Positions 1-61,207 of a stretch of DNA of 64,000 nucleotides are shown here, piece by piece (position 1 is the stretch's first letter; the number at the start of each line of letters is the position of its first letter). This DNA is from Escherichia coli (GTDB lineage Bacteria > Pseudomonadota > Gammaproteobacteria > Enterobacterales > Enterobacteriaceae), in the NCBI RefSeq assembly GCF_003991155.1, contig NZ_CP031293.1; one strand, 5' to 3'. The translations under genes and the position numbers were made by a program. The notes beneath the pieces are model-generated. The model ran no database searches. It was not told the DNA's origin and worked only from the letters and a program-made list of their open reading frames with translations.

Positions 1-631
1 TTACCTTGCGCTTCTCGCGGAAGATATTGAACGCGATATTCCCTACGATCCCGAACCCATTGGCAGATACAACGTCGCGCCGGGAACCAAAGTTCTTCTG
101 CTCAGTGAACGTGATGAACACCTTCATCTGGATCCGGTTTTCTGGGGATATGCTCCCGGATGGTGGGATAAACCGCCGCTGATTAACGCCCGCGTAGAAA
201 CTGCGGCCACCAGTCGTATGTTTAAACCGCTCTGGCAACATGGTCGGGCAATCTGTTTTGCCGATGGCTGGTTTGAGTGGAAAAAAGAAGGCGACAAAAA
301 ACAGCCTTATTTTATCTATCGCGCTGATGGACAACCTGTTTTTATGGCCGCGATAGGTAGCACACCGTTTGAGCGCGGTGACGAAGCCGAAGGATTTTTA
401 ATTGTCACTGCAGCAGCAGACCAGGGTCTGGTAGATATTCATGACCGCCGCCCGCTGGTTCTGTCGCCAGAAGCTGCACAGGAATGGATGCGGCAAGAGA
501 TTGGCGGTAAAGAAGCATCAGAAATTGCTACCAACGGCTGTGTGCCAGCAAACCAGTTCACCTGGCACCCGGTATCGCGCGCGGTGGGTAATATCAAAAA
601 CCAGGGAGCGGAGTTAATTCAACCGGTTTGA
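1..631 (+). CDS. yedK: SOS-response-associated peptidase YedK (SRAP), 5'-truncated by window start
   Basis: Frame continuous from window start; translation YLALLAEDIERDIPYDPEPIGRYNVAPG...MFKPLWQHGRAICFADGWFEWKK matches my recollection of YedK; stop at 631. Confidence 0.85.
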   Translation, partial: YLALLAEDIERDIPYDPEPIGRYNVAPGTKVLLLSERDEHLHLDPVFWGYAPGWWDKPPLINARVETAATSRMFKPLWQHGRAICFADGWFEWKKEGDKKQPYFIYRADGQPVFMAAIGSTPFERGDEAEGFLIVTAAADQGLVDIHDRRPLVLSPEAAQEWMRQEIGGKEASEIATNGCVPANQFTWHPVSRAVGNIKNQGAELIQPV

Positions 632-1035
632 TAAGCCAGGAGACTATTGATCAATAATACTGCGTCATAAGAAATCTCTATTAGACAAAGTAGACGCTCC
701 TTCCACATGCGCCACAAGAAACCTCTATTCCAGTGACACAATTACGCCTGATTATTTCCCTAGCCCGGAATATGAATAAAAACATCAACAAAGATTAAAT
801 TATTCAAACGTTACTGTTGCGTCTGCGGTCGTAACAACAACCGACCTGGTGATGCGTGTTAAAGGAGACACTCTGATGTTCAGGGGGGTTATCACGTATA
901 CGGATCGTGGATGGCAGAAAACAATCAGGATCAGGTATCCATTTTAAACCAGAAATTGAGTGAGTTTGCCCCATCCATGCCCCACGCTGTGGGATCGGAT
1001 GTAATTAAACAAGCATAGTCAACAGGTTACAAAAC

Positions 1036-1350
1036 CTACACCTGCATGGACATCACTTCCTGATACGCCGCCACCAGCTTATTACGCACCTGAATCCCCA
1101 TTTGCATTGAAACTGAGGCTTTTTGCATATCGGTCATCACATCGTTTAACGCCACGCCGGGTTCACCGAGGGTGAATTTTTCTGCCTGCGTGCGGGCGGC
1201 TGTTTGTGTATCGCTTATGCGATCGAGCGCGGCGTGCAGCTGCCCGGCAAAACTAATGGTCGGTTGTGGCAGTGATTCCTGCGCACGCGCACTCATCGCC
1301 GTAGCCTGTAACTGGCTGATAACCCCTTCAATCCCCTGTATCGCTGACAT
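1036..1350 (-). CDS. fliE: Flagellar hook-basal body complex protein FliE (104 aa)
   Basis: ORF 1036..1380 trimmed to Met11 ([15 protein letters not shown]...); divergent from fliF as in enterobacterial flagellar region. Confidence 0.93.
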
Positions 1351-1564: not shown

Positions 1565-4889
<3,325 letters not shown>

Positions 4890-22398: not shown

Positions 22399-23472
22399 AT
22401 GAAAAGAAAAGTTCTGGCAATGCTGGTCCCGGCGTTATTAGTTGCTGGCGCAGCAAATGCGGCTGAAATTTATAATAAAGATGGCAATAAAGTTGATTTC
22501 TACGGCAAGATGGTTGGCGAACGCATCTGGTCAAATACTGATGATAATAACAGCGAAAACGAAGATACCTCCTATGCTCGTTTCGGTGTTAAAGGTGAAA
22601 CCCAAATCACCAGCGAACTGACTGGTTTTGGTCAGTTTGAATACAACCTCGACGCCAGCAAGCCCGAAGGCTCTAATCAGGAAAAAACCCGTTTAACCTT
22701 CGCAGGTTTGAAATATAACGAGTTAGGATCTTTCGACTATGGTCGTAACTACGGTGTTGCTTATGATGCCGCAGCTTATACCGATATGTTAGTTGAATGG
22801 GGTGGTGATTCCTGGGCGTCCGCTGACAACTTCATGAACGGTCGTACCAACGGTGTTGCAACCTACCGTAACTCTGATTTCTTTGGTCTGGTTGATGGTC
22901 TGAATTTTGCTGTGCAATATCAAGGTAAGAACAGCAATCGTGGCGTTACTAAACAAAACGGTGATGGCTATGCGTTGTCTGTAGACTACAACATCGAAGG
23001 TTTTGGTTTTGTAGGTGCATATAGCAAATCTGATCGTACTAATGAACAAGCTGGTGACGGCTACGGTGATAACGCTGAAGTGTGGTCATTAGCAGCCAAG
23101 TATGATGCAAATAATATCTATGCAGCAATGATGTACGGTGAAACCCGCAACATGACCGTTTTGGCTAATGATCATTTTGCAAATAAAACCCAAAACTTTG
23201 AAGCTGTTGTACAGTATCAGTTCGACTTCGGTTTACGTCCGTCTTTAGGCTACGTATATTCCAAAGGCAAAGATCTTTATGCTCGTGATGGACATAAAGG
23301 TGTTGATGCTGACCGCGTAAATTATATCGAAGTTGGTACCTGGTACTACTTCAATAAGAACATGAACGTCTACACAGCATACAAATTTAACCTGCTGGAT
23401 AAAGACGATGCAGCGATTACCGATGCCGCAACTGATGACCAGTTTGCAGTTGGTATCGTCTACCAGTTCTAA
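22399..23472 (+). CDS. yedS: OmpC/OmpF-family general porin, intact YedS-type
   Basis: Signal peptide [21 protein letters not shown] then [15 protein letters not shown], typical porin beta-barrel sequence ending in F; lies between yedR and hchA. Confidence 0.85.
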
Positions 23473-29604: not shown

Positions 29605-30255
29605 TTGGCGATTCGTCTTCATAAACTGGCTGTTGCTTTTGGTGTCTTTATTGTCAGCGCTCCTGCCTTTTCGCATGGTCATCACTCACACGGCAAACCT
29701 TTAACAGAGATCGAACAAAAAGCTGCTAATGGTGTTTTTGATGATGCCAATGTACAAAATCGAACGCTCAGTGACTGGGATGGAGTCTGGCAATCCGTTT
29801 ATCCTTTACTGCAAAGTGGCAAACTTGACCCCGTCTTTCAGAAGAAAGCGGATGCAGATAAAACTAAAACATTTGCTGAAATTAAAGATTATTATCACAA
29901 AGGTTATGCGACAGATATCGAGATGATTGGCATTGAGGACGGCATTGTTGAATTCCATAGAAATAATGAAACAACATCCTGCAAATATGATTACGATGGA
30001 TACAAAATACTCACCTATAAATCAGGCAAGAAAGGCGTTCGTTACTTATTCGAATGTAAAGATCCTGAAAGCAAAGCCCCTAAATATATTCAATTTAGCG
30101 ATCATATAATTGCACCACGAAAATCATCTCATTTTCACATTTTTATGGGTAATGATTCCCAGCAATCTTTATTGAATGAAATGGAAAACTGGCCAACGTA
30201 TTATCCCTATCAGTTGAGTAGCGAAGAAGTAGTCGAGGAGATGATGTCTCATTGA
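29605..30255 (+). CDS. zinT: Periplasmic zinc/cadmium-binding protein ZinT/YodA (216 aa)
   Basis: Signal peptide then His-rich HGHHSHGKP motif; 216 aa. Confidence 0.93.
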
Positions 30256-30343
30256 TTTTTTTGCGCTGACTTCAATTATTTAACAGAACAGTGCCTGGTA
30301 GTAACGACAATAATTTACCAAGACAAATAAATAAGACAAACTC

Positions 30344-30377
30344 AGACACGCTCATGCTTGAGACGTGTCTTTTTTAT
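30344..30377 (+). terminator. Rho-independent terminator downstream of zinT
   Basis: AGACACG...CGTGTCT hairpin followed by TTTTTTATT. Confidence 0.7.
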
Positions 30378-43001: not shown

Positions 43002-43613
43002 CTATTTTTGTTTATATAAATCGTAGGAACTTAATTTTTTAGATTTCTCATAGGCATTTTCAATGTATAAAGATACATCTGCTAAAAATCGGTCTTCTTC
43101 TATCAATGAAATATAAGAACCAGTCAATTGATCATATGATTTGCACTCAGGGCAACAATATTTATCTTCTGAAGTTAAATTAAACCTATTATTATTAATA
43201 ATGTCATATAGTTCAGTTGTGTCAATAGTTCTTGATGAACATCCATCAGGCTTGATTGAAGAAGATACTAACCAGTCATAGCTATTATTAACCTTCATTA
43301 TCACACCAACAATGCCATTAGTTCGGGAAGTGGTTCCTCCTCTCTTGTATTCTTTCAATGCATATTCAATTTCCCAGTCAATCCATTTACTTTTAATCAT
43401 ATTCGGGGAAATAATAACGATTAAAACAGATGTCCCGAAAATCATATTTTTAAGATTGTTCTTTATATTATCTACTGTTGTATTACTTATATCAGGAGAC
43501 TCCGATGTTTCCCCTTTATAGTAAACAGCATCATCACCTAATGCCTTGACAATTTTGTCTCTTAAATCCTGTGCTTCACTATATTTATATGATATGAATG
43601 TTTCATGAGCCAT
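43002..43613 (-). CDS. thsB: Thoeris ThsB, TIR-domain protein (203 aa)
   Basis: N-terminal FISYKYSEA... TIR-like beginning, about 200 aa, immediately downstream of SIR2-SLOG gene. Confidence 0.75.
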   Translation of the reverse strand: MAHETFISYKYSEAQDLRDKIVKALGDDAVYYKGETSESPDISNTTVDNIKNNLKNMIFGTSVLIVIISPNMIKSKWIDWEIEYALKEYKRGGTTSRTNGIVGVIMKVNNSYDWLVSSSIKPDGCSSRTIDTTELYDIINNNRFNLTSEDKYCCPECKSYDQLTGSYISLIEEDRFLADVSLYIENAYEKSKKLSSYDLYKQK

Positions 43614-43629
43614 AACTTCACCTAATATA

Positions 43630-45066
43630 TTATTTATTCAGTTTGTTTATGATTTTTATTACAACTTCTATTGTTTTTTTTACCGAAAAATCTTTTTCAG
43701 TAAGCTCAGACAAATCATTATATATCCATTCATTACTTCCATAATATTTCTTAGGATCTTGTGATATTTGTTCAAATATATATTTAGACATATACCCGGT
43801 ATTGGGTAAAGGAATTGGTACAAGGCCATGTTGAACAGCAATCTCAAACTCTCTAAATACTCCCCTAGCATTTACTATATCATTATTTTCCTCTTGTTTA
43901 TTTCCAAAAATAAACAATGCAATACCACCAAGAGGAATCATTCTCTGTCTATACTCCTCCCAAAGTTCTTGAATATCTTTCCCCTTACTGACAGTTTGTG
44001 GAAATGGTCTAACAATGAGCTGTTCTTCTGATAATTTATCTGGCCTACTATAAATTGCATCCAACGCACCATTTATCACAGAACTTCCGACGCCCCATCC
44101 AAATCCATTCACTATCCTATAATTATTCTTTATAATCTCATATGCTAATGTGTGAATAAAATCTAATGCTTTAGGTCTTTCAAGATCCCCATATTTTTCT
44201 GCACTACCAGAAATAAATATCGTTTTCTTTTTAAATGATTGCTCTATCTTAGCTAGAATTTTAGGGATGTCAGAATATTCATCTATTAATAATACTTGTA
44301 TACCAAATCTCTTGAGATCATCGATTCGCAGTTTTTGTTTTCTGATCTTATAATTTACTGTTTCTTCATCATCTAGGGAATTATTAGCCTCATTCTTCAT
44401 AAAGCAATAGTGTGTCCTCTTGTCCCCAGAATGAGTATACAAACGACTCAAAATGTAATCCAGATTTGGGTCGGTAAAACTAAACCCTATGAATAGAAAG
44501 GTTTTTGATATTAAATCTCCGCTAAGTGCGGTGATAAATGAAGCGTGTGTTCTGTAGTATTTTTCATACTGCTCTTTATATAAAATAGCCTTGGATGGGG
44601 ACGAAATATCACCATGCATTTTATATACTATCGCGTCTCGCTTAGGTCGTGTTGTATTTAAATCATCTATGTTTCTTTTTACATCTGCAATTTTGTAAAC
44701 TTTCCGCAGACTATCTTCAATTAAAGTGTCATAGTTTGTTGTCCAAAATGTCTTAATCGGTAAACGAGCAATTATATTATGAACCTCTGATGGCTCGGCT
44801 TGCTCAGAAAACTCTTCGATTATCTTCCTTGTGAGTTTTGTAGCCCCTTTCTTTTCATTAACATGAAATTGAGCAAGCGATATTAGATCGTCTTCTTTAT
44901 TAATGTCTAAACTAAGCTCTTCTGCTATATCGCTAAGTAATTCTTTCCAATCAACATAACCTTGACTTTTAGACATTCCTGCGCCAGAAAAAATAGCAGC
45001 ACAATCATTTTCAAGATCTTTAACAAAATCTTTTATGAAAACTTCAATTTCATTACTAAACGTCAT
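43630..45066 (-). CDS. thsA: Thoeris ThsA, SIR2-SLOG NADase effector (478 aa)
   Basis: N-terminal SIR2-like motifs (FSGAGMS, TTNYD, MHGD) and C-terminal SLOG-like glycine-rich region (FISGSAEKYG...GFGWGVGSSVINGALD); start set at MTFSNEIEV with GGAG RBS. Confidence 0.8.
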   Translation of the reverse strand: MTFSNEIEVFIKDFVKDLENDCAAIFSGAGMSKSQGYVDWKELLSDIAEELSLDINKEDDLISLAQFHVNEKKGATKLTRKIIEEFSEQAEPSEVHNIIARLPIKTFWTTNYDTLIEDSLRKVYKIADVKRNIDDLNTTRPKRDAIVYKMHGDISSPSKAILYKEQYEKYYRTHASFITALSGDLISKTFLFIGFSFTDPNLDYILSRLYTHSGDKRTHYCFMKNEANNSLDDEETVNYKIRKQKLRIDDLKRFGIQVLLIDEYSDIPKILAKIEQSFKKKTIFISGSAEKYGDLERPKALDFIHTLAYEIIKNNYRIVNGFGWGVGSSVINGALDAIYSRPDKLSEEQLIVRPFPQTVSKGKDIQELWEEYRQRMIPLGGIALFIFGNKQEENNDIVNARGVFREFEIAVQHGLVPIPLPNTGYMSKYIFEQISQDPKKYYGSNEWIYNDLSELTEKDFSVKKTIEVVIKIINKLNK

Positions 45067-52860: not shown

Positions 52861-52950
52861 TGGCGGAGAGAGGGGGATTTGAACCCCCGGTAGAGTTGCC
52901 CCTACTCCGGTTTTCGAGACCGGTCCGTTCAGCCGCTCCGGCATCTCTCC
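52861..52950 (-). tRNA. serU: tRNA-Ser (anticodon CGA)
   Basis: Reverse complement GGAGAGATGCCGGAGCGGCTGAACGGACCGGTCTCGAAAACCGG...GGTTCAAATCCCCCTCTCTCCGCCA has long variable arm and CGA anticodon. Confidence 0.92.
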
Positions 52951-53941: not shown

Positions 53942-54017
53942 TCCTCTGTAGTTCAGTCGGTAGAACGGCGGACTGTTAATCCGTATGTCACTGGTTCGAG
54001 TCCAGTCAGAGGAGCCA
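53942..54017 (+). tRNA. asnT: tRNA-Asn (anticodon GTT)
   Basis: TCCTCTGTAGTTCAGTCGGTAGAACGGCGGACTGTTAATCCGTATGTCACTGGTTCGAGTCCAGTCAGAGGAGCCA, 76 nt. Confidence 0.93.
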
Positions 54018-54183
54018 AATTTTAGTCTTGAGACATCTCTATAAGTCTCAGGATAGTTAAAAAACAAGAACTTATCTTTACCCGGTTGTCTCGCAAGAGG
54101 CTGCTGGGTTTCTTGACATCCATAGTTTTTAGGGGCCTAATCAGGGGCCTCACGGTTCGGTGAGCAAACGGAGCCCCCACGCT

Positions 54184-55446
54184 ATGGCATTAACAGACAC
54201 CGCTATTCGCAAGACTAAACCCTCTGACAAACCCTTCAAAATGACGGACAGTTCTGGACTGTACCTGTTGATCAAACCTAACGGCTCAAAACTCTGGTAT
54301 ATGAAGTACCGCATCGACGGCAAAGAGAAGAAACTGGCCTTTGGCCCCTACCCGGAGATCTCCCTGTTGCAGGCTCGCCGCCTGCGCGAAACAGCACGCA
54401 ATAACATTCATGCAGGCGTCGATCCGGCTGCGGTGAAGCAAACCGAGAAACAGAAGAGGAAAAACGGGCAGACGTTCAGCCAGATCGCCATCAACTGGCA
54501 TAGCGAGCATAAACGCTGGTCTGAGCATTACGCGAAAACGGTTATGCGCAGGCTGGAAATGTACGTTTTCCCGGATATCGGGGATCGCCTTATCGAGGAG
54601 ATCGAAACGGAGGATTTGTTATTCACGTTGCGCAAGGTAGAGAGTAAAGGCTTTCTGGAAATCACCGCGCGGCTGAAAAACTACGTCACCGATATCATGC
54701 ACTACGCGATGAAAAAGAAACTGCTCAAAGCGAACCCGGCGCTGTATCTGGACGGTGAGTTTGCCGCGCCAGAAACCAGTCACTACCCGGCCCTGTCGCT
54801 GGATAAGTTGCCTGAGCTTTTATCCCGGACAGAGAATTACTGCGGCAGGCTGCTGACGAAATACGCCCTCAAACTTTCGCTGCTGTTTTTCGTGCGCTCC
54901 AGCGAGCTACGTTTTGCCCGCTGGAGTGAAATCGACTGGCAGCAAAAACTGTGGGTGATCCCGGAAGAACGCGAGCAGATCGAAAACGTGCGCTTCTCTT
55001 ACCGGGGGGCGAAAATGAAAATCCAGCACATTGTGCCGCTGTCGGATCAGGCGATTGCGATACTGAAGCAGATCGAGGCCCTCTCCGGGCATCTGGCCTT
55101 TATTTTTCCCGGCGAATACGACCAGAACAAGTGCATGAGCGACAACACCGTCAACAAGGCGCTGCGCGTGATGGGTTACGACACCAAAAAGGATATCTGC
55201 GGGCATGGCTTCCGGGCAATGGCCTGTAGTGCGCTGAGCGAATCGGGATTATGGAGCAAAGAAGCCATTGAAAAGCAGATGAGCCACCAGGAAAGAAACA
55301 GCGTCCGTGCTGCCTATATTCACAAGGCTGAATATCTGGAGGAACGGATCGAGATGATGCAGTGGTGGTCAGATTATCTTGATGCAAACAGTGACGGGTA
55401 TGTCTCGGCTTACCAGTATGCCCGCCGCCTAAAACAGGCGTCGTAA
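54184..55446 (+). CDS. P4-like tyrosine integrase of asnT-associated island
   Basis: MALTDTAIRKTKPSDKPFKMTDSSGLYLLIKPNGSKLWYMKYR N-terminus typical of P4-family integrases; directly downstream of the tRNA 3' end. Confidence 0.9.
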   Translation: MALTDTAIRKTKPSDKPFKMTDSSGLYLLIKPNGSKLWYMKYRIDGKEKKLAFGPYPEISLLQARRLRETARNNIHAGVDPAAVKQTEKQKRKNGQTFSQIAINWHSEHKRWSEHYAKTVMRRLEMYVFPDIGDRLIEEIETEDLLFTLRKVESKGFLEITARLKNYVTDIMHYAMKKKLLKANPALYLDGEFAAPETSHYPALSLDKLPELLSRTENYCGRLLTKYALKLSLLFFVRSSELRFARWSEIDWQQKLWVIPEEREQIENVRFSYRGAKMKIQHIVPLSDQAIAILKQIEALSGHLAFIFPGEYDQNKCMSDNTVNKALRVMGYDTKKDICGHGFRAMACSALSESGLWSKEAIEKQMSHQERNSVRAAYIHKAEYLEERIEMMQWWSDYLDANSDGYVSAYQYARRLKQAS

Positions 55447-55569
55447 GTTAACAAAGCATCAGAGGGGGAAAAGGTATATTCCCCCTTTGTGCGTTTCAAA
55501 TGTCGATGCTGACTGTAGCTTTTAAACTAAATTACTGGATAAAAAGTAGCTTTTAAGCTACTATCTTTT

Positions 55570-55743
55570 ATGAAAACGATAAAGACCTACATAACTGCCG
55601 ACGGGCGAGATCTGTATGCAGAGTTTTTTAAAGGGTTACGCAACCCCATCGCGAAGGCAACGATCGCTTCCCGGATCAACCGGATGGCTTCGGACAATTT
55701 TGGCGACCATAAGCCCTGCCGGGAAGGTGTCTGGGAACTGTAG
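55570..55743 (+). pseudogene. Addiction-module killer-type toxin gene (RelE/ParE superfamily), 3'-truncated by IS insertion
   Basis: MKTIKTYITADGRDLYAEFFKGLRNPIAKATIASRINRMASDNFGDHKPCREGVWEL then stop inside the IS left end. Confidence 0.6.
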
Positions 55744-55746
55744 TGG

Positions 55747-57709
<1,963 letters not shown>

Positions 57710-57988
57710 ATCTCGTTCTCCTTCATAACATTCCAGATTCCAGAGGTACTTCGTGCTGCTATAACGTACCCGACAACCGGAACACCGGGACAGACAATGG
57801 ATGCGGTATTCGGTTATAAAACGGTATATATTTAAATAGTGAACACCATGAGCGTAATATATTTATTTGATGAATGTATTGATGAAAGGAAAATTGCTTT
57901 TTAGCTATTATCGGCGGGTGTATAATTTAGTCCGTTTTTTTCAAATAAATAATCGCAAATAGCATCTGATGCCACTGAGGACGCAGGT

Positions 57989-58780
57989 ATGAATTTCAGA
58001 CCAGCAGTATATTTATGTGCAGCAACATTTTTACTGGCTGGCTGTGCGCCACGCTCCCCCATTGATGCGAAGAAAACGGGCGCATCCGCCAAAGAGAGCA
58101 GCATCAGCAAAAACACAACGGCACAACTGACCGATAAAGATATTTTTGGCAATGAAACCACGCTGGCAGTTTCTGAGGAAGATATTCAGGCAGCACTGGA
58201 AGGCGAAGCGTTCCGCGTGCCGCTGAATTCACCCGTGATTCTGGTTCAATCCGGTAGCCGCGCACCGGAGGCCATGATGCAGCAGGAAATGAGTAAATAT
58301 TATACCGTTGCCACATTCTCCGGTATCCCGGACAGACAAAAACCTGTGACCTGTAACAAAGACAAAAACAAAGATAAAAGCGAGAACCAGGATGTTGCTG
58401 TTGTTGAGAATATGAACTGGATGCAGGCACTGCGTTTTGTGGCTGCAAAAGGACATCAGAAATCGATTATTGTTTACCAGGATACGTTGCAGACAGGAAA
58501 ATATGACTCTGCGCTGAAATCAACAGTGTGGTCAGATTATAAAAATCAAAAACTAACTGACACAATGTCATTACGTTTTTTGGTTCGCTTCACTCTGGTG
58601 GATGTGGCAACTGGCGAGTGGGCTACCTGGTCACCTGTAAATTATGAGTCCAGAGTTATCTTCCCTCAGACTGAAAAAAAGGGTGCAATCACTACCGATG
58701 TGACAGAGCAACAAATCACCCAGCTTAAGCAGAAAACATACGCAGCAATGACCAGGGATCTGGTGAACCGCTATCAGTAA
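57989..58780 (+). CDS. Lipoprotein (263 aa)
   Basis: Signal/lipobox FLLAGCAP; Lys/Asp-rich central region. Confidence 0.6.
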
Positions 58781-58988
58781 GCAACATCCCCCTTACCTGC
58801 CGCTAATAAATAGTGGCGGCAGGCACTGGCACGAAAAACTCCCTGATGCTGACGATTATTAAACATCTTTCTGGTATTTTCTGTTGCAAACCATCCCATT
58901 CATAGCATATCAGTATCCATCATTTTAAATTTACAGTGATTGTATGCCTCAAAGCTAATCGCTTCCGATGATGGTGCCCGCAATAAAT

Positions 58989-59288
58989 TTAATCGGAATC
59001 GTCTTCTGTATCCTCCTCATATGAATCCCTGACGGTCCCCAGTTTTGTATTGCCATTGGCAGGCGTCCCATCTCCCATCAGAACGTCGATGTCATAGCCA
59101 GGATATTGTTTCTTTATATTGCGTTTGAACTCTGAGACCGTCGAATCATTTTTGGACATTTTCACCCGCTGATATTGTGGCATATCTTTTTTATCACCCC
59201 GGACGTCCTTACCATCGGGTGTTTTGAAGCGAACATCAAATCCCTGTACATCCCAGATTTTCTTTTCAACATTTTTTACTAATGGCAT
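58989..59288 (-). CDS. Hypothetical small protein (99 aa) downstream of hcp
   Basis: ORF with acidic C-terminal tail. Confidence 0.45.
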   Translation of the reverse strand: MPLVKNVEKKIWDVQGFDVRFKTPDGKDVRGDKKDMPQYQRVKMSKNDSTVSEFKRNIKKQYPGYDIDVLMGDGTPANGNTKLGTVRDSYEEDTEDDSD

Positions 59289-59340
59289 TTTTATTCTCTC
59301 TTCAGAAAATTACACTAAATCAAAAAAAGTATCGCTATTC

Positions 59341-59820
59341 TTAATAGAGTCTCTCTTCCCATAAGCTATATGCACTGGTTCCTGCAACACAGTGCTCCTG
59401 AGTAATACTTTCATAGGTGAATGATATGGCCTCTTCTGGTTGTCCCTGGCTATTGTTGACAGTGTGCGGCACAATATGCTTTATGCTGGCAATGCGGGCG
59501 TTAATCAGCTTCACTTTGAAATACAGCTCGTTAATACCAAAACGGTTGGTGCGGTAATACTCAAAATCACAGGTCAGACACTCATTTTCGCTGATAGCCT
59601 TACTCAACAAAGGGGAAGATTTATCCACGGGTTTCTGAATAATGAGCGCTTGATGATTCACGTTTTGTGCACGGGTTAATCCGTGGCTGAGTCCCAGCAC
59701 CATGATCTGATCCATATGCGCAATCTGCGCTTTGTTCCCAATAGATGCCAGTGATGAACAGCCTGCGGAGATCAGCCCCTGGAGATCGCCGTTCAGTGTC
59801 AGGTAAACAGGATTTGCCAT
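59341..59820 (-). CDS. hcp: Type VI secretion system tube protein Hcp (159 aa)
   Basis: MANPVYLTLNGDLQG...KPVDKSSPLL...ISFTYESITQEH pattern characteristic of the Hcp family. Confidence 0.8.
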   Translation of the reverse strand: MANPVYLTLNGDLQGLISAGCSSLASIGNKAQIAHMDQIMVLGLSHGLTRAQNVNHQALIIQKPVDKSSPLLSKAISENECLTCDFEYYRTNRFGINELYFKVKLINARIASIKHIVPHTVNNSQGQPEEAISFTYESITQEHCVAGTSAYSLWEERLY

Positions 59821-59841
59821 ATTAAGCTCCTTGGTCCGGGG

Positions 59842-61197
59842 TTATTTCCCGACCCCTTTATCAATAATTGCCGTTTCCGGTAGAGAGTGATTTTTCAGCA
59901 ACAACCAGCGACTTAACACGCCGTCCAGCCGCTCGTTAATCTGTTTTTCCAGTACGTCGGTATTCTGCCCCTGCGCACGGGCGTCCTGGTACTGCGTCAG
60001 CAGCGACTCAACGGGTGTTTCCTGCCCCAGCCCCCGCTCCGCCTGCCAGATAACATTTTTGATGTAGGAAAGGGTTACCCCCTCTTTCTCACGTTTCATC
60101 ACGAGGTCTGCAAAGGCATGTAAGTCCTGGCGGGCCTGTAACCAGCCGCGTAACTGTGGACTACTCTGCGCACGAGTTTTCAGCGTCTCATTCCACTGTG
60201 CGGTGGCCTGCTGCTGTTGCAGACTCTCCGGCCAGCGGCTGTCGGCGGTACGCGCCATCTGTAAGCCCGTATTCAGCGGCTGAACAGGTGAAGCATCAAG
60301 GAGTTGCTGTAGCCTGCGCTCATAGTTTTCCAGCTCAGGCGACACAAGCCAGACTGTCGCAGCGCCCTGCGCGGTATCGCTGACCTGGGTGAGTTGTTGC
60401 TGCATGGGAGAGACCAGCCACCACCAGAGAGCGGCGGCAACAGCCCCGGAGCAGAGAACACCCGCGATAAAACCTTTCACCGCACTGCCCTGCTTTGCCA
60501 CACTGGTCGGTGGCGTACTGTCAGCCAGGCTGCGCACCTCCACCTTCATCTCCGGCAGTTCAGGCAGCGGCGGCATCACCGTTTCGGTTGCTGGCGTAAT
60601 ACCGTTTTCCGGGGCATAAATCAGCGTTCTGACCGTGGTCTGTGCGGTGTGTTCAACGCTGCTTTTCGGCTGCGGCTCAAGTCGTTTACGCGTGTTCTGA
60701 ACAAAATAAAGCAGGTTTTCCACGCGCGGCTGGCGCTTCAGTTCCACCTGCTGGAGCTTGTCACAGATAAGCTGTAGTGCCCGTTCCGTGCGATATAACA
60801 GAGGCAGGTCAGCCTCCACAAAGGATATCTGCTGGCGCAGGATATTCCCGGTGCGGGTGTTGAACCAGTCCAGCATCTCGGTCCGCGCCGGGCCGCCCTG
60901 CGGCCAGAAGTTATCCCACTCGTGAGTGACCATCGCCGCCAGCAATTCCGCCCCTTCGCAGAATCCCGCCAGCCCCTGTGTCCGGGTCCGGGCCAGCGTG
61001 TAGTAGGTGGCGGTATGCAAATCCACCCCGTTGGCCTTAAATATCGCCAGCGCCAGCGACTCCACCAGTTTCCAGTTCAGCTCCGGCTGCGACGGGTGGC
61101 TGGCCTTGTTGATTTCCTCGCGGATGGCGCTGAACTCTGGCAGGCCACGCGGGTCACTGCCGGTAACGATAGTTTGTGTCAGTACGTTATTGCTCAT
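59842..61197 (-). CDS. Type VI secretion TssA/VasL-family protein (ImpA N-terminal domain with internal TM segment)
   Basis: N-terminal ImpA-like region (DPRGLPEFSAIREEINK...NWKLV...LLAAMVTHEWDNFWPQ), hydrophobic segment FIAGVLCSGAVAAALWWWLV; start set at MSNNVLTQ with GAGGAG RBS just after tssM stop. Confidence 0.7.
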   Translation of the reverse strand: MSNNVLTQTIVTGSDPRGLPEFSAIREEINKASHPSQPELNWKLVESLALAIFKANGVDLHTATYYTLARTRTQGLAGFCEGAELLAAMVTHEWDNFWPQGGPARTEMLDWFNTRTGNILRQQISFVEADLPLLYRTERALQLICDKLQQVELKRQPRVENLLYFVQNTRKRLEPQPKSSVEHTAQTTVRTLIYAPENGITPATETVMPPLPELPEMKVEVRSLADSTPPTSVAKQGSAVKGFIAGVLCSGAVAAALWWWLVSPMQQQLTQVSDTAQGAATVWLVSPELENYERRLQQLLDASPVQPLNTGLQMARTADSRWPESLQQQQATAQWNETLKTRAQSSPQLRGWLQARQDLHAFADLVMKREKEGVTLSYIKNVIWQAERGLGQETPVESLLTQYQDARAQGQNTDVLEKQINERLDGVLSRWLLLKNHSLPETAIIDKGVGK

Positions 61198-61207
61198 CCC
61201 TGTCTCC

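Follow-up and report, generated by a model that had tools for sequence, protein, structure and literature searches.

The short yedK-fliE interval of an Escherichia coli chromosome is very probably a reduced relic of a phage that integrated at the 3' end of fliE

Results

Layout of the yedK-fliE interval

In the stretch of E. coli DNA analysed here (the window, 64 kb in length), the stop codon of yedK (TGA) lies at 629-631 and that of fliE, on the minus strand, at 1036-1038, leaving an interval of 404 bp (632-1035) between the two genes; this agrees with the gap of about 400 bp given in the initial annotation. The features of the interval and its surroundings are listed in Table 1. The initial annotation had also described the interval as holding no remnant genes, and this description does not stand: an intG-type integrase remnant is present at 869-1018, together with scraps of the yedL/yedN spacers at 648-690, 691-757 and 758-860. 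Many RefSeq chromosomes, among them that of strain 2016C-3878, match positions 1-1800 with 100% identity; in 2016C-3878 the order annotated by PGAP is yedK, an integrase pseudogene ("incomplete, missing N-terminus") corresponding to window 869-1018, and fliE. The G+C content is 0.42 in the interval and 0.40 over 648-860, compared with 0.52 in yedK and 0.55 in fliE. The short yedK-fliE interval is an ordinary, common and already annotated difference between strains.

Table 1. Features at the yedK-fliE locus (window coordinates)
Feature	Position	Strand	Remarks
yedK 3' part (SOS response-associated peptidase)	1-631	+	94.9% identical to K-12 yedK
Spacer, 16 bp (TAAGCCAGGAGACTAT), presumed host DNA	632-647		last stretch common to the window and B2-type genomes
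Scrap A' (43 bp)	648-690		also upstream of yedL in K-12; holds repeat copy 1 (661-682)
Scrap B (67 bp)	691-757		94% identical to K-12 L002 3153-3219, between convergent yedL and yedN; holds repeat copy 2 (708-729)
Scrap C (103 bp)	758-860		upstream of yedN in yedN-bearing strains (K-12 L002 about 4432-4535)
Integrase remnant, intG-type	861-1018	+	last 49 codons 869-1015, stop TAG 1016-1018
Phage arm, 17 bp (TCAACAGGTTACAAAAC)	1019-1035		between the integrase stop and the att core, inside the phage alignment
att core, 20 bp (CTACACCTGCATGGACATCA)	1036-1055		fliE stop codon and last 17 coding bases (five full codons, part of a sixth)
fliE (flagellar hook-basal body protein), intact, 104 aa	1036-1350	-	
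fliF	1565-3223		

Comparison with K-12 MG1655

The window was compared with K-12 MG1655 by local blastn, a global MAFFT alignment having misplaced the short scraps; L002 denotes the K-12 locus used as the reference for coordinates. In K-12 the genes follow one another as yedK, yedL, yedN (a pseudogene), intG (a pseudogene, b1936, "cryptic prophage PR-G") and fliE, with an interval of 2,210 bp; this MG1655 annotation bears out the gene order given in the initial annotation, except for a separate yedM, none being listed in the copy of the record used. Three collinear pieces were recovered, in which window 1-690 corresponds to L002 1860-2549 (94.9%), 691-757 to L002 3153-3219 (94%) and 754-1800 to L002 4432-5465 (96.1%). 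Two blocks are found only in K-12. The first, of 603 bp (L002 2550-3152; window junction 690/691), is a yedL cassette in which the gene is preceded by 51 bp and followed by 72 bp, the latter including a hairpin followed by a T-run. The second, of 1,212 bp (L002 3220-4431; window junction at about 757/758), comprises yedN and 79 bp upstream of it. Accordingly, neither yedL, which encodes a GNAT acetyltransferase, nor the espR-like LRR gene or pseudogene yedN has a counterpart in the window. It had been proposed that this strain lacks the accessory patch of K-12; the pairwise blastn alignment upholds this for the yedL and yedN blocks, which are missing, and not for the intG remnant, which falls within the 754-1800 alignment and is retained along with the three short scraps.

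Two smaller differences lie close to fliE. Eleven bases (ACAAGCATAGT, window 1008-1018) are kept in the window, in the yedL-bearing, yedN-less genome L006, in B2 strains and in the phage described below, but are missing from K-12 and from L007. Their loss removes the stop codon of the integrase, and this is probably why the intG pseudogene of K-12 is annotated as running into fliE. In addition, the codon for Ser102 of FliE is TCC in the core of the window, whereas it is AGC in K-12.

The integrase remnant and phage IdasGreatGrand

The 49-codon tail at 869-1015 is matched by 172 phage records; of the 15 matches listed, each one in an annotated record lies on an integrase gene. Escherichia phage IdasGreatGrand (PP925829.1; locus L092) matches best, with 95.4% DNA identity over 195 bp between window 861-1055 and L092 3001-3195, and with 91.8% amino-acid identity (tblastn) between the tail and residues 386-434 of the 434-aa phage integrase. 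The alignment spans the 3' end of the integrase gene, its stop codon, the 17-bp spacer and the 20-bp core; the core of the window (1036-1055) is identical to the attP core of the phage (L092 3176-3195), and homology to the phage ends exactly at 1055, with full divergence beyond. Because the homology covers integrase, spacer and core in one run (861-1055), this segment is read as the integrase-proximal junction (attL) of a prophage, with the attachment core lying within the 3' end of fliE. On the yedK side, phage matches start only at 861, and no phage or integrase homology was detected in scrap C (758-860). A resemblance of the tail to IntD of DLP12 was considered and dropped, since tblastn showed no similarity.

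The full IdasGreatGrand integrase matches the Pfam families PF12167 (Arm-DNA-bind_2) and PF00589 (Phage_integrase), and no Pfam family was matched by the 49-aa remnant. Judged from its sequence, the remnant is a tail without complete arm-binding and catalytic domains and cannot be active as an integrase. Among E. coli genomes the tail exists in two allelic forms, with or without the 11 bp and with TCC or AGC in the core, and these do not cleanly track the yedL/yedN haplotypes described below, pointing to recombination or to repeated phage visits.

The 3' end of fliE as a phage attachment site

Occupied sites in other strains were examined for the arrangement of core copies around the foreign DNA. 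In UPEC 26-1 (L010), a B2 strain, the interval is 4.3 kb long and carries an nmpC/ompC-like porin gene, ybcM, ybcL, emrE and a scrap of integrase; the DNA of this island shows 85-92% identity to that of DLP12, a K-12 prophage. It is bounded by direct copies of the core, one of which is the end of fliE, while the other (19/20 identical) starts 17 bp after the yedK stop codon, so that the ancestral spacer between yedK and fliE would have been only 16 bp long. Window 1-647 corresponds to segment 155-801 of UPEC 26-1, and the B2 copy of the core begins at the very next base; the foreign DNA of the window and K-12 types thus begins exactly at the nucleotide where the yedK-side core copy of B2 strains starts. 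The B2-type yedK-side junction occurs in about 470 of 5,426 complete E. coli genomes. A yedK-side copy of the core is absent in the window and K-12 types, and a search of the 64-kb window for a second copy with up to 3 mismatches returned only the one at fliE.

A complete prophage at this site was found in strain UTAK-1 (L093), where 38.7 kb of phage DNA abut fliE and include a full integrase gene (98.4% to the phage) and an excisionase gene. At the far end of this prophage lie a second copy of the core, the old integrase tail, an intact gene for a 379-aa LRR protein (a yedN homologue) and yedK. A full-length integrase gene abutting fliE is present in six genomes. These comparisons show that an IdasGreatGrand-type tyrosine integrase recombines the 20-bp core, which forms the end of fliE, and that the phage copy of the core restores the gene. 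The 3' end of fliE is a real phage attachment site and is still in use. An unoccupied site was sought with a synthetic 68-mer representing the empty junction, and none of the 5,426 complete E. coli genomes covers at least 80% of it; in the window, 388 bp separate the 16-bp spacer from the fliE stop codon.

The Ser102 codon of FliE switches between serine codon families at this site, with TCC in the window and in IdasGreatGrand and AGC in K-12 and several other genomes. In UTAK-1, the recent integration has moved the AGC copy of the core to the opposite end of the prophage. The TCC/AGC polymorphism may mark which phage last supplied the end of fliE.

In the O157-like strain 105 (L003, 1649-5700), the interval measures 4,173 bp, and a unit of about 1.96 kb (yedL'-B-espR-int') occurs in it twice in tandem, giving rise to espR3 and espR4; the resulting O157-type arrangement is yedL-espR3-[int'+yedL']-espR4-int'. 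In this strain a truncated GNAT gene has become joined to an incomplete copy of the integrase tail.

Haplotypes among complete E. coli genomes

The frequency of each form was measured in 5,426 complete RefSeq E. coli genomes. The double junction of the window (probe 661-790, at least 80% covered) was found in 1,015 of them, at an identity of at least 99% in 1,014. The scar left at the yedL junction (probe 661-757) was present in 1,014 genomes and the yedN-less junction (probe 691-800) in 1,147, while the yedL block was detected in 1,314 genomes and the yedN/espR block in 1,541, with 84-100% identity among the matches listed. By subtraction, about 132 genomes carry yedL and not yedN (examples L006 and L007), about 360 carry yedN and not yedL (examples L008 and L009) and about 1,180 carry both, the O157-type tandem duplication included; roughly half of the genomes have the B2-type island or something else. 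All four combinations of presence and absence of yedL and yedN were observed. The yedL scar is nested within the yedN-less set (1,014 of 1,147), and no haplotype combining the scar with yedN was seen. Since practically every genome with the yedL scar also lacks yedN, the most parsimonious course is that yedN was lost first and yedL afterwards.

Polarity was also sought outside E. coli. A scan for YedK in species-representative genomes gave 80 loci, among which fliE lay within the yedK flank only in an E. coli-like contig and in Franconibacter, so that no polarity was gained. Outside Escherichia yedK is not beside fliE, indicating that its position is lineage-specific. Several Enterobacteriaceae, such as Citrobacter gillenii, Enterobacter hormaechei, E. 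cloacae and Kosakonia sp. S29, carry two yedK/SRAP paralogues.

A repeat beside the yedL junction

A 22-nt imperfect direct repeat (661-682 and 708-729, 19/22 identical) flanks the yedL junction of the window, its copies lying 8 and 17 bp outside that junction. These copies stand 650 bp apart in K-12, with yedL between them. The yedN-bearing genomes without yedL (L008 and L009) hold a single copy, with A'-like sequence to its left and B-like sequence to its right. Both copies and the 25 bp between them are kept in the window, and the yedL junction therefore looks like the scar of an internal deletion, not like a place where yedL had never been. The only length difference between the window and L006 is one clean indel of 603 bp. 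Deletion microhomology was found at neither of the two window junctions; a TAGAC/TTAGAC match at the yedL junction was considered and rejected, because both copies and the intervening AAAG survive.

Search for a function of the interval

The interval was scanned for elements that might act on its neighbours or be expressed. No match at E<=1 was obtained with the covariance models of Rfam 15 over 400-1700, no promoter-like or terminator-like site was found by scanning 632-1035, and the RNA downstream of yedK or of fliE folds no better than shuffled sequences (z = -1.0 and +0.6). The short open reading frames of the interval are unremarkable, and the one at 911-1018 (35 aa) is the in-frame tail of the integrase. 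These data indicate that the interval is without detectable function and is simply DNA downstream of two convergent genes.

Other variable regions of the window

Several other parts of the window differ from K-12. An island of about 21.9 kb (window about 30939-52860) that is absent from K-12 lies at the tRNA-Ser gene serU (52861-52950) and resembles an integrative mobilisable element: it encodes a tyrosine integrase (31103-32323), RepL and a MobQ relaxase (38338-39819), as well as a PilV shufflon adhesin, two H-NS paralogues and a type IV pilin. The same island carries, on the minus strand at 43002-45066, a type I Thoeris anti-phage pair, composed of ThsA (SIR2/STALD, 43630-45066; E = 8e-203 against PADLOC ThsA1) and ThsB (TIR, 43002-43613; E = 3e-85). 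A second island (about 54090-64000) adjoins the tRNA-Asn gene asnT (53942-54017), where K-12 has yeeJ. It contains an integrase gene (54184-55446), a truncated RelE/ParE toxin gene and an IS3 element, as well as type VI secretion genes for Hcp (59341-59820), a VasL-domain protein and TssM, the last running from 61208 past the end of the window. At 30255-30478, about 220 bp replace about 1 kb of K-12 DNA with yodB, a cytochrome b561 homologue, and yodB appears to be absent from this strain. In the region of the K-12 yedS porin pseudogene, about 530 bp (22928-23458) have no megablast alignment to K-12, where the region measures about 655 bp; this may represent a different allele or state of yedS.

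Discussion

The interval between yedK and fliE in the window is neither clean nor a site that was never occupied; it is a further-decayed version of the region known from K-12. Very probably, foreign DNA came in when a phage integrated at the end of fliE, and the interval is what survives of it in its most reduced form. A prophage would have become established between fliE and yedK and then decayed. The K-12 lineage would have kept the integrase tail as intG, with the EspR-like LRR pseudogene yedN and the GNAT acetyltransferase gene yedL in the same place; going by their position, yedL and yedN may have been cargo of the same ancient prophage. In the lineage of the window, the yedN block (1,212 bp) would have been lost first and the yedL block (603 bp) later; what remains is the core, the integrase tail, scraps A', B and C (43, 67 and 103 bp) and 16 bp of presumed host spacer. 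By nesting and parsimony, the form seen in the window would have arisen through two successive deletions. No description of an attachment site at the 3' end of fliE was found in the searchable literature.

Other histories of the locus have to be weighed against this one. The 404-bp form could be ancestral and never occupied, with yedL, yedN and intG gained in K-12 by later insertion; the yedL block (promoter, coding sequence, hairpin then T-run) and the yedN block do resemble self-contained cassettes, and the junctions show no deletion microhomology, as would suit later insertion. However, the integrase tail and phage arm are already in the window, so that its site was occupied; the scar junction is nested in the yedN-less set and was not seen together with yedN; and yedN alleles that differ by up to 15% among the matches listed speak for an old residence, all of which makes an ancestral short form very improbable. 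On a smaller scale, the 603-bp indel itself may have arisen by insertion instead of deletion, in view of the lack of microhomology and the odd 22-nt repeat pair beside the junction. Alternatively, yedL and yedN could be a small islet that has no connection with the prophage and arrived on its own (e.g., by way of the 22-nt repeat); the lineage of the window would then have lost them, or in part never possessed them, regardless of how the prophage decayed. This is a possibility to be taken seriously, though we hold it to be somewhat unlikely. It would fit the result that no YedN/EspR-like protein was matched in 50,697 phage records (tblastn with an intact protein as the query), the presence on a plasmid (H120) of a GNAT gene 82% identical to yedL, and the 22-nt direct repeat that brackets yedL and is single in yedL-less, yedN-bearing genomes, much like an att site or target duplication. 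Nevertheless, yedL and yedN lie wholly between the presumed boundary of host and foreign DNA (647/648) and the integrase tail, in O157-like genomes the tail and yedL'-espR have been duplicated as a single unit, and neither gene has a mobility gene of its own.

Two further explanations concern the short form as it stands today. An assembly collapse or other artefact is excluded for practical purposes, with hardly any chance left to it, because 1,015 independent complete RefSeq genomes, produced in many laboratories, share this double junction. Retention of the scraps by selection for a function, whether as a terminator of fliE or yedK, a small RNA or a small protein, could be argued from the identity of at least 99% at the junction in 1,014 genomes and from the open 35-aa reading frame at 911-1018; however, such identity is expected within closely related lineages, the reading frame is the integrase tail, and the Rfam, promoter, terminator and folding analyses all went against it, so that we regard selected function as improbable. 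A different kind of effect is also conceivable, if rather unlikely. On this view the phage would supply the final 20 bp of fliE along with all the DNA downstream, and each integration would rewrite them (compare the TCC/AGC codons and the 11-bp indel); differences in decay, from 404 bp up to over 4 kb or a live prophage, could then give E. coli lineages different 3' ends of fliE, terminators or read-through from yedK. If that were true, measurable effects on flagellar gene expression would follow.

The decay of phage DNA into the short interval is of little importance for biology at large. It does illustrate that an apparently clean intergenic gap can be the end state of prophage decay, here with an exact scar common to about 19% of the complete E. 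coli genomes. For prophage annotation it is useful to know that the 3' end of fliE is a live attachment site, and the history of the locus is useful when calls of presence or absence of the "virulence factors" espR3 and espR4 are read in genome surveys.

The prophage e14 in icd is the textbook case of integration at the 3' end of a protein-coding gene for which the incoming phage provides a replacement end. The fliE site resembles this class in that the core is located within the coding 3' end, the protein sequence (MSMQV*) is preserved by the phage copy and the displaced copy is found at the far side of the prophage, as in UTAK-1; it differs in that the target is fliE, the segment of identity is only 20 bp long and the window keeps no second copy of the core. 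In relation to the phage itself, IdasGreatGrand has the full 434-aa integrase and an excisionase, whereas the window has the integrase tail only. The "cryptic prophage PR-G" of K-12 occupies the same locus, with the integrase cut off at the same point (about residue 383-386) and with scraps A', B and C at 94-96% identity, but has the 603-bp yedL and 1,212-bp yedN blocks that the window lacks. The B2-type island shares with the window the integrase tail from 888 onward, the core and the 16-bp spacer; in contrast, it holds 4.3 kb of other cargo and has kept both copies of the core. Lastly, the espR3/espR4 locus of the O157:H7 type likewise lies between yedK and fliE, and its genes, which are absent from the window, are intact and homologous to yedN, the pseudogene of K-12 (about 85% DNA identity).
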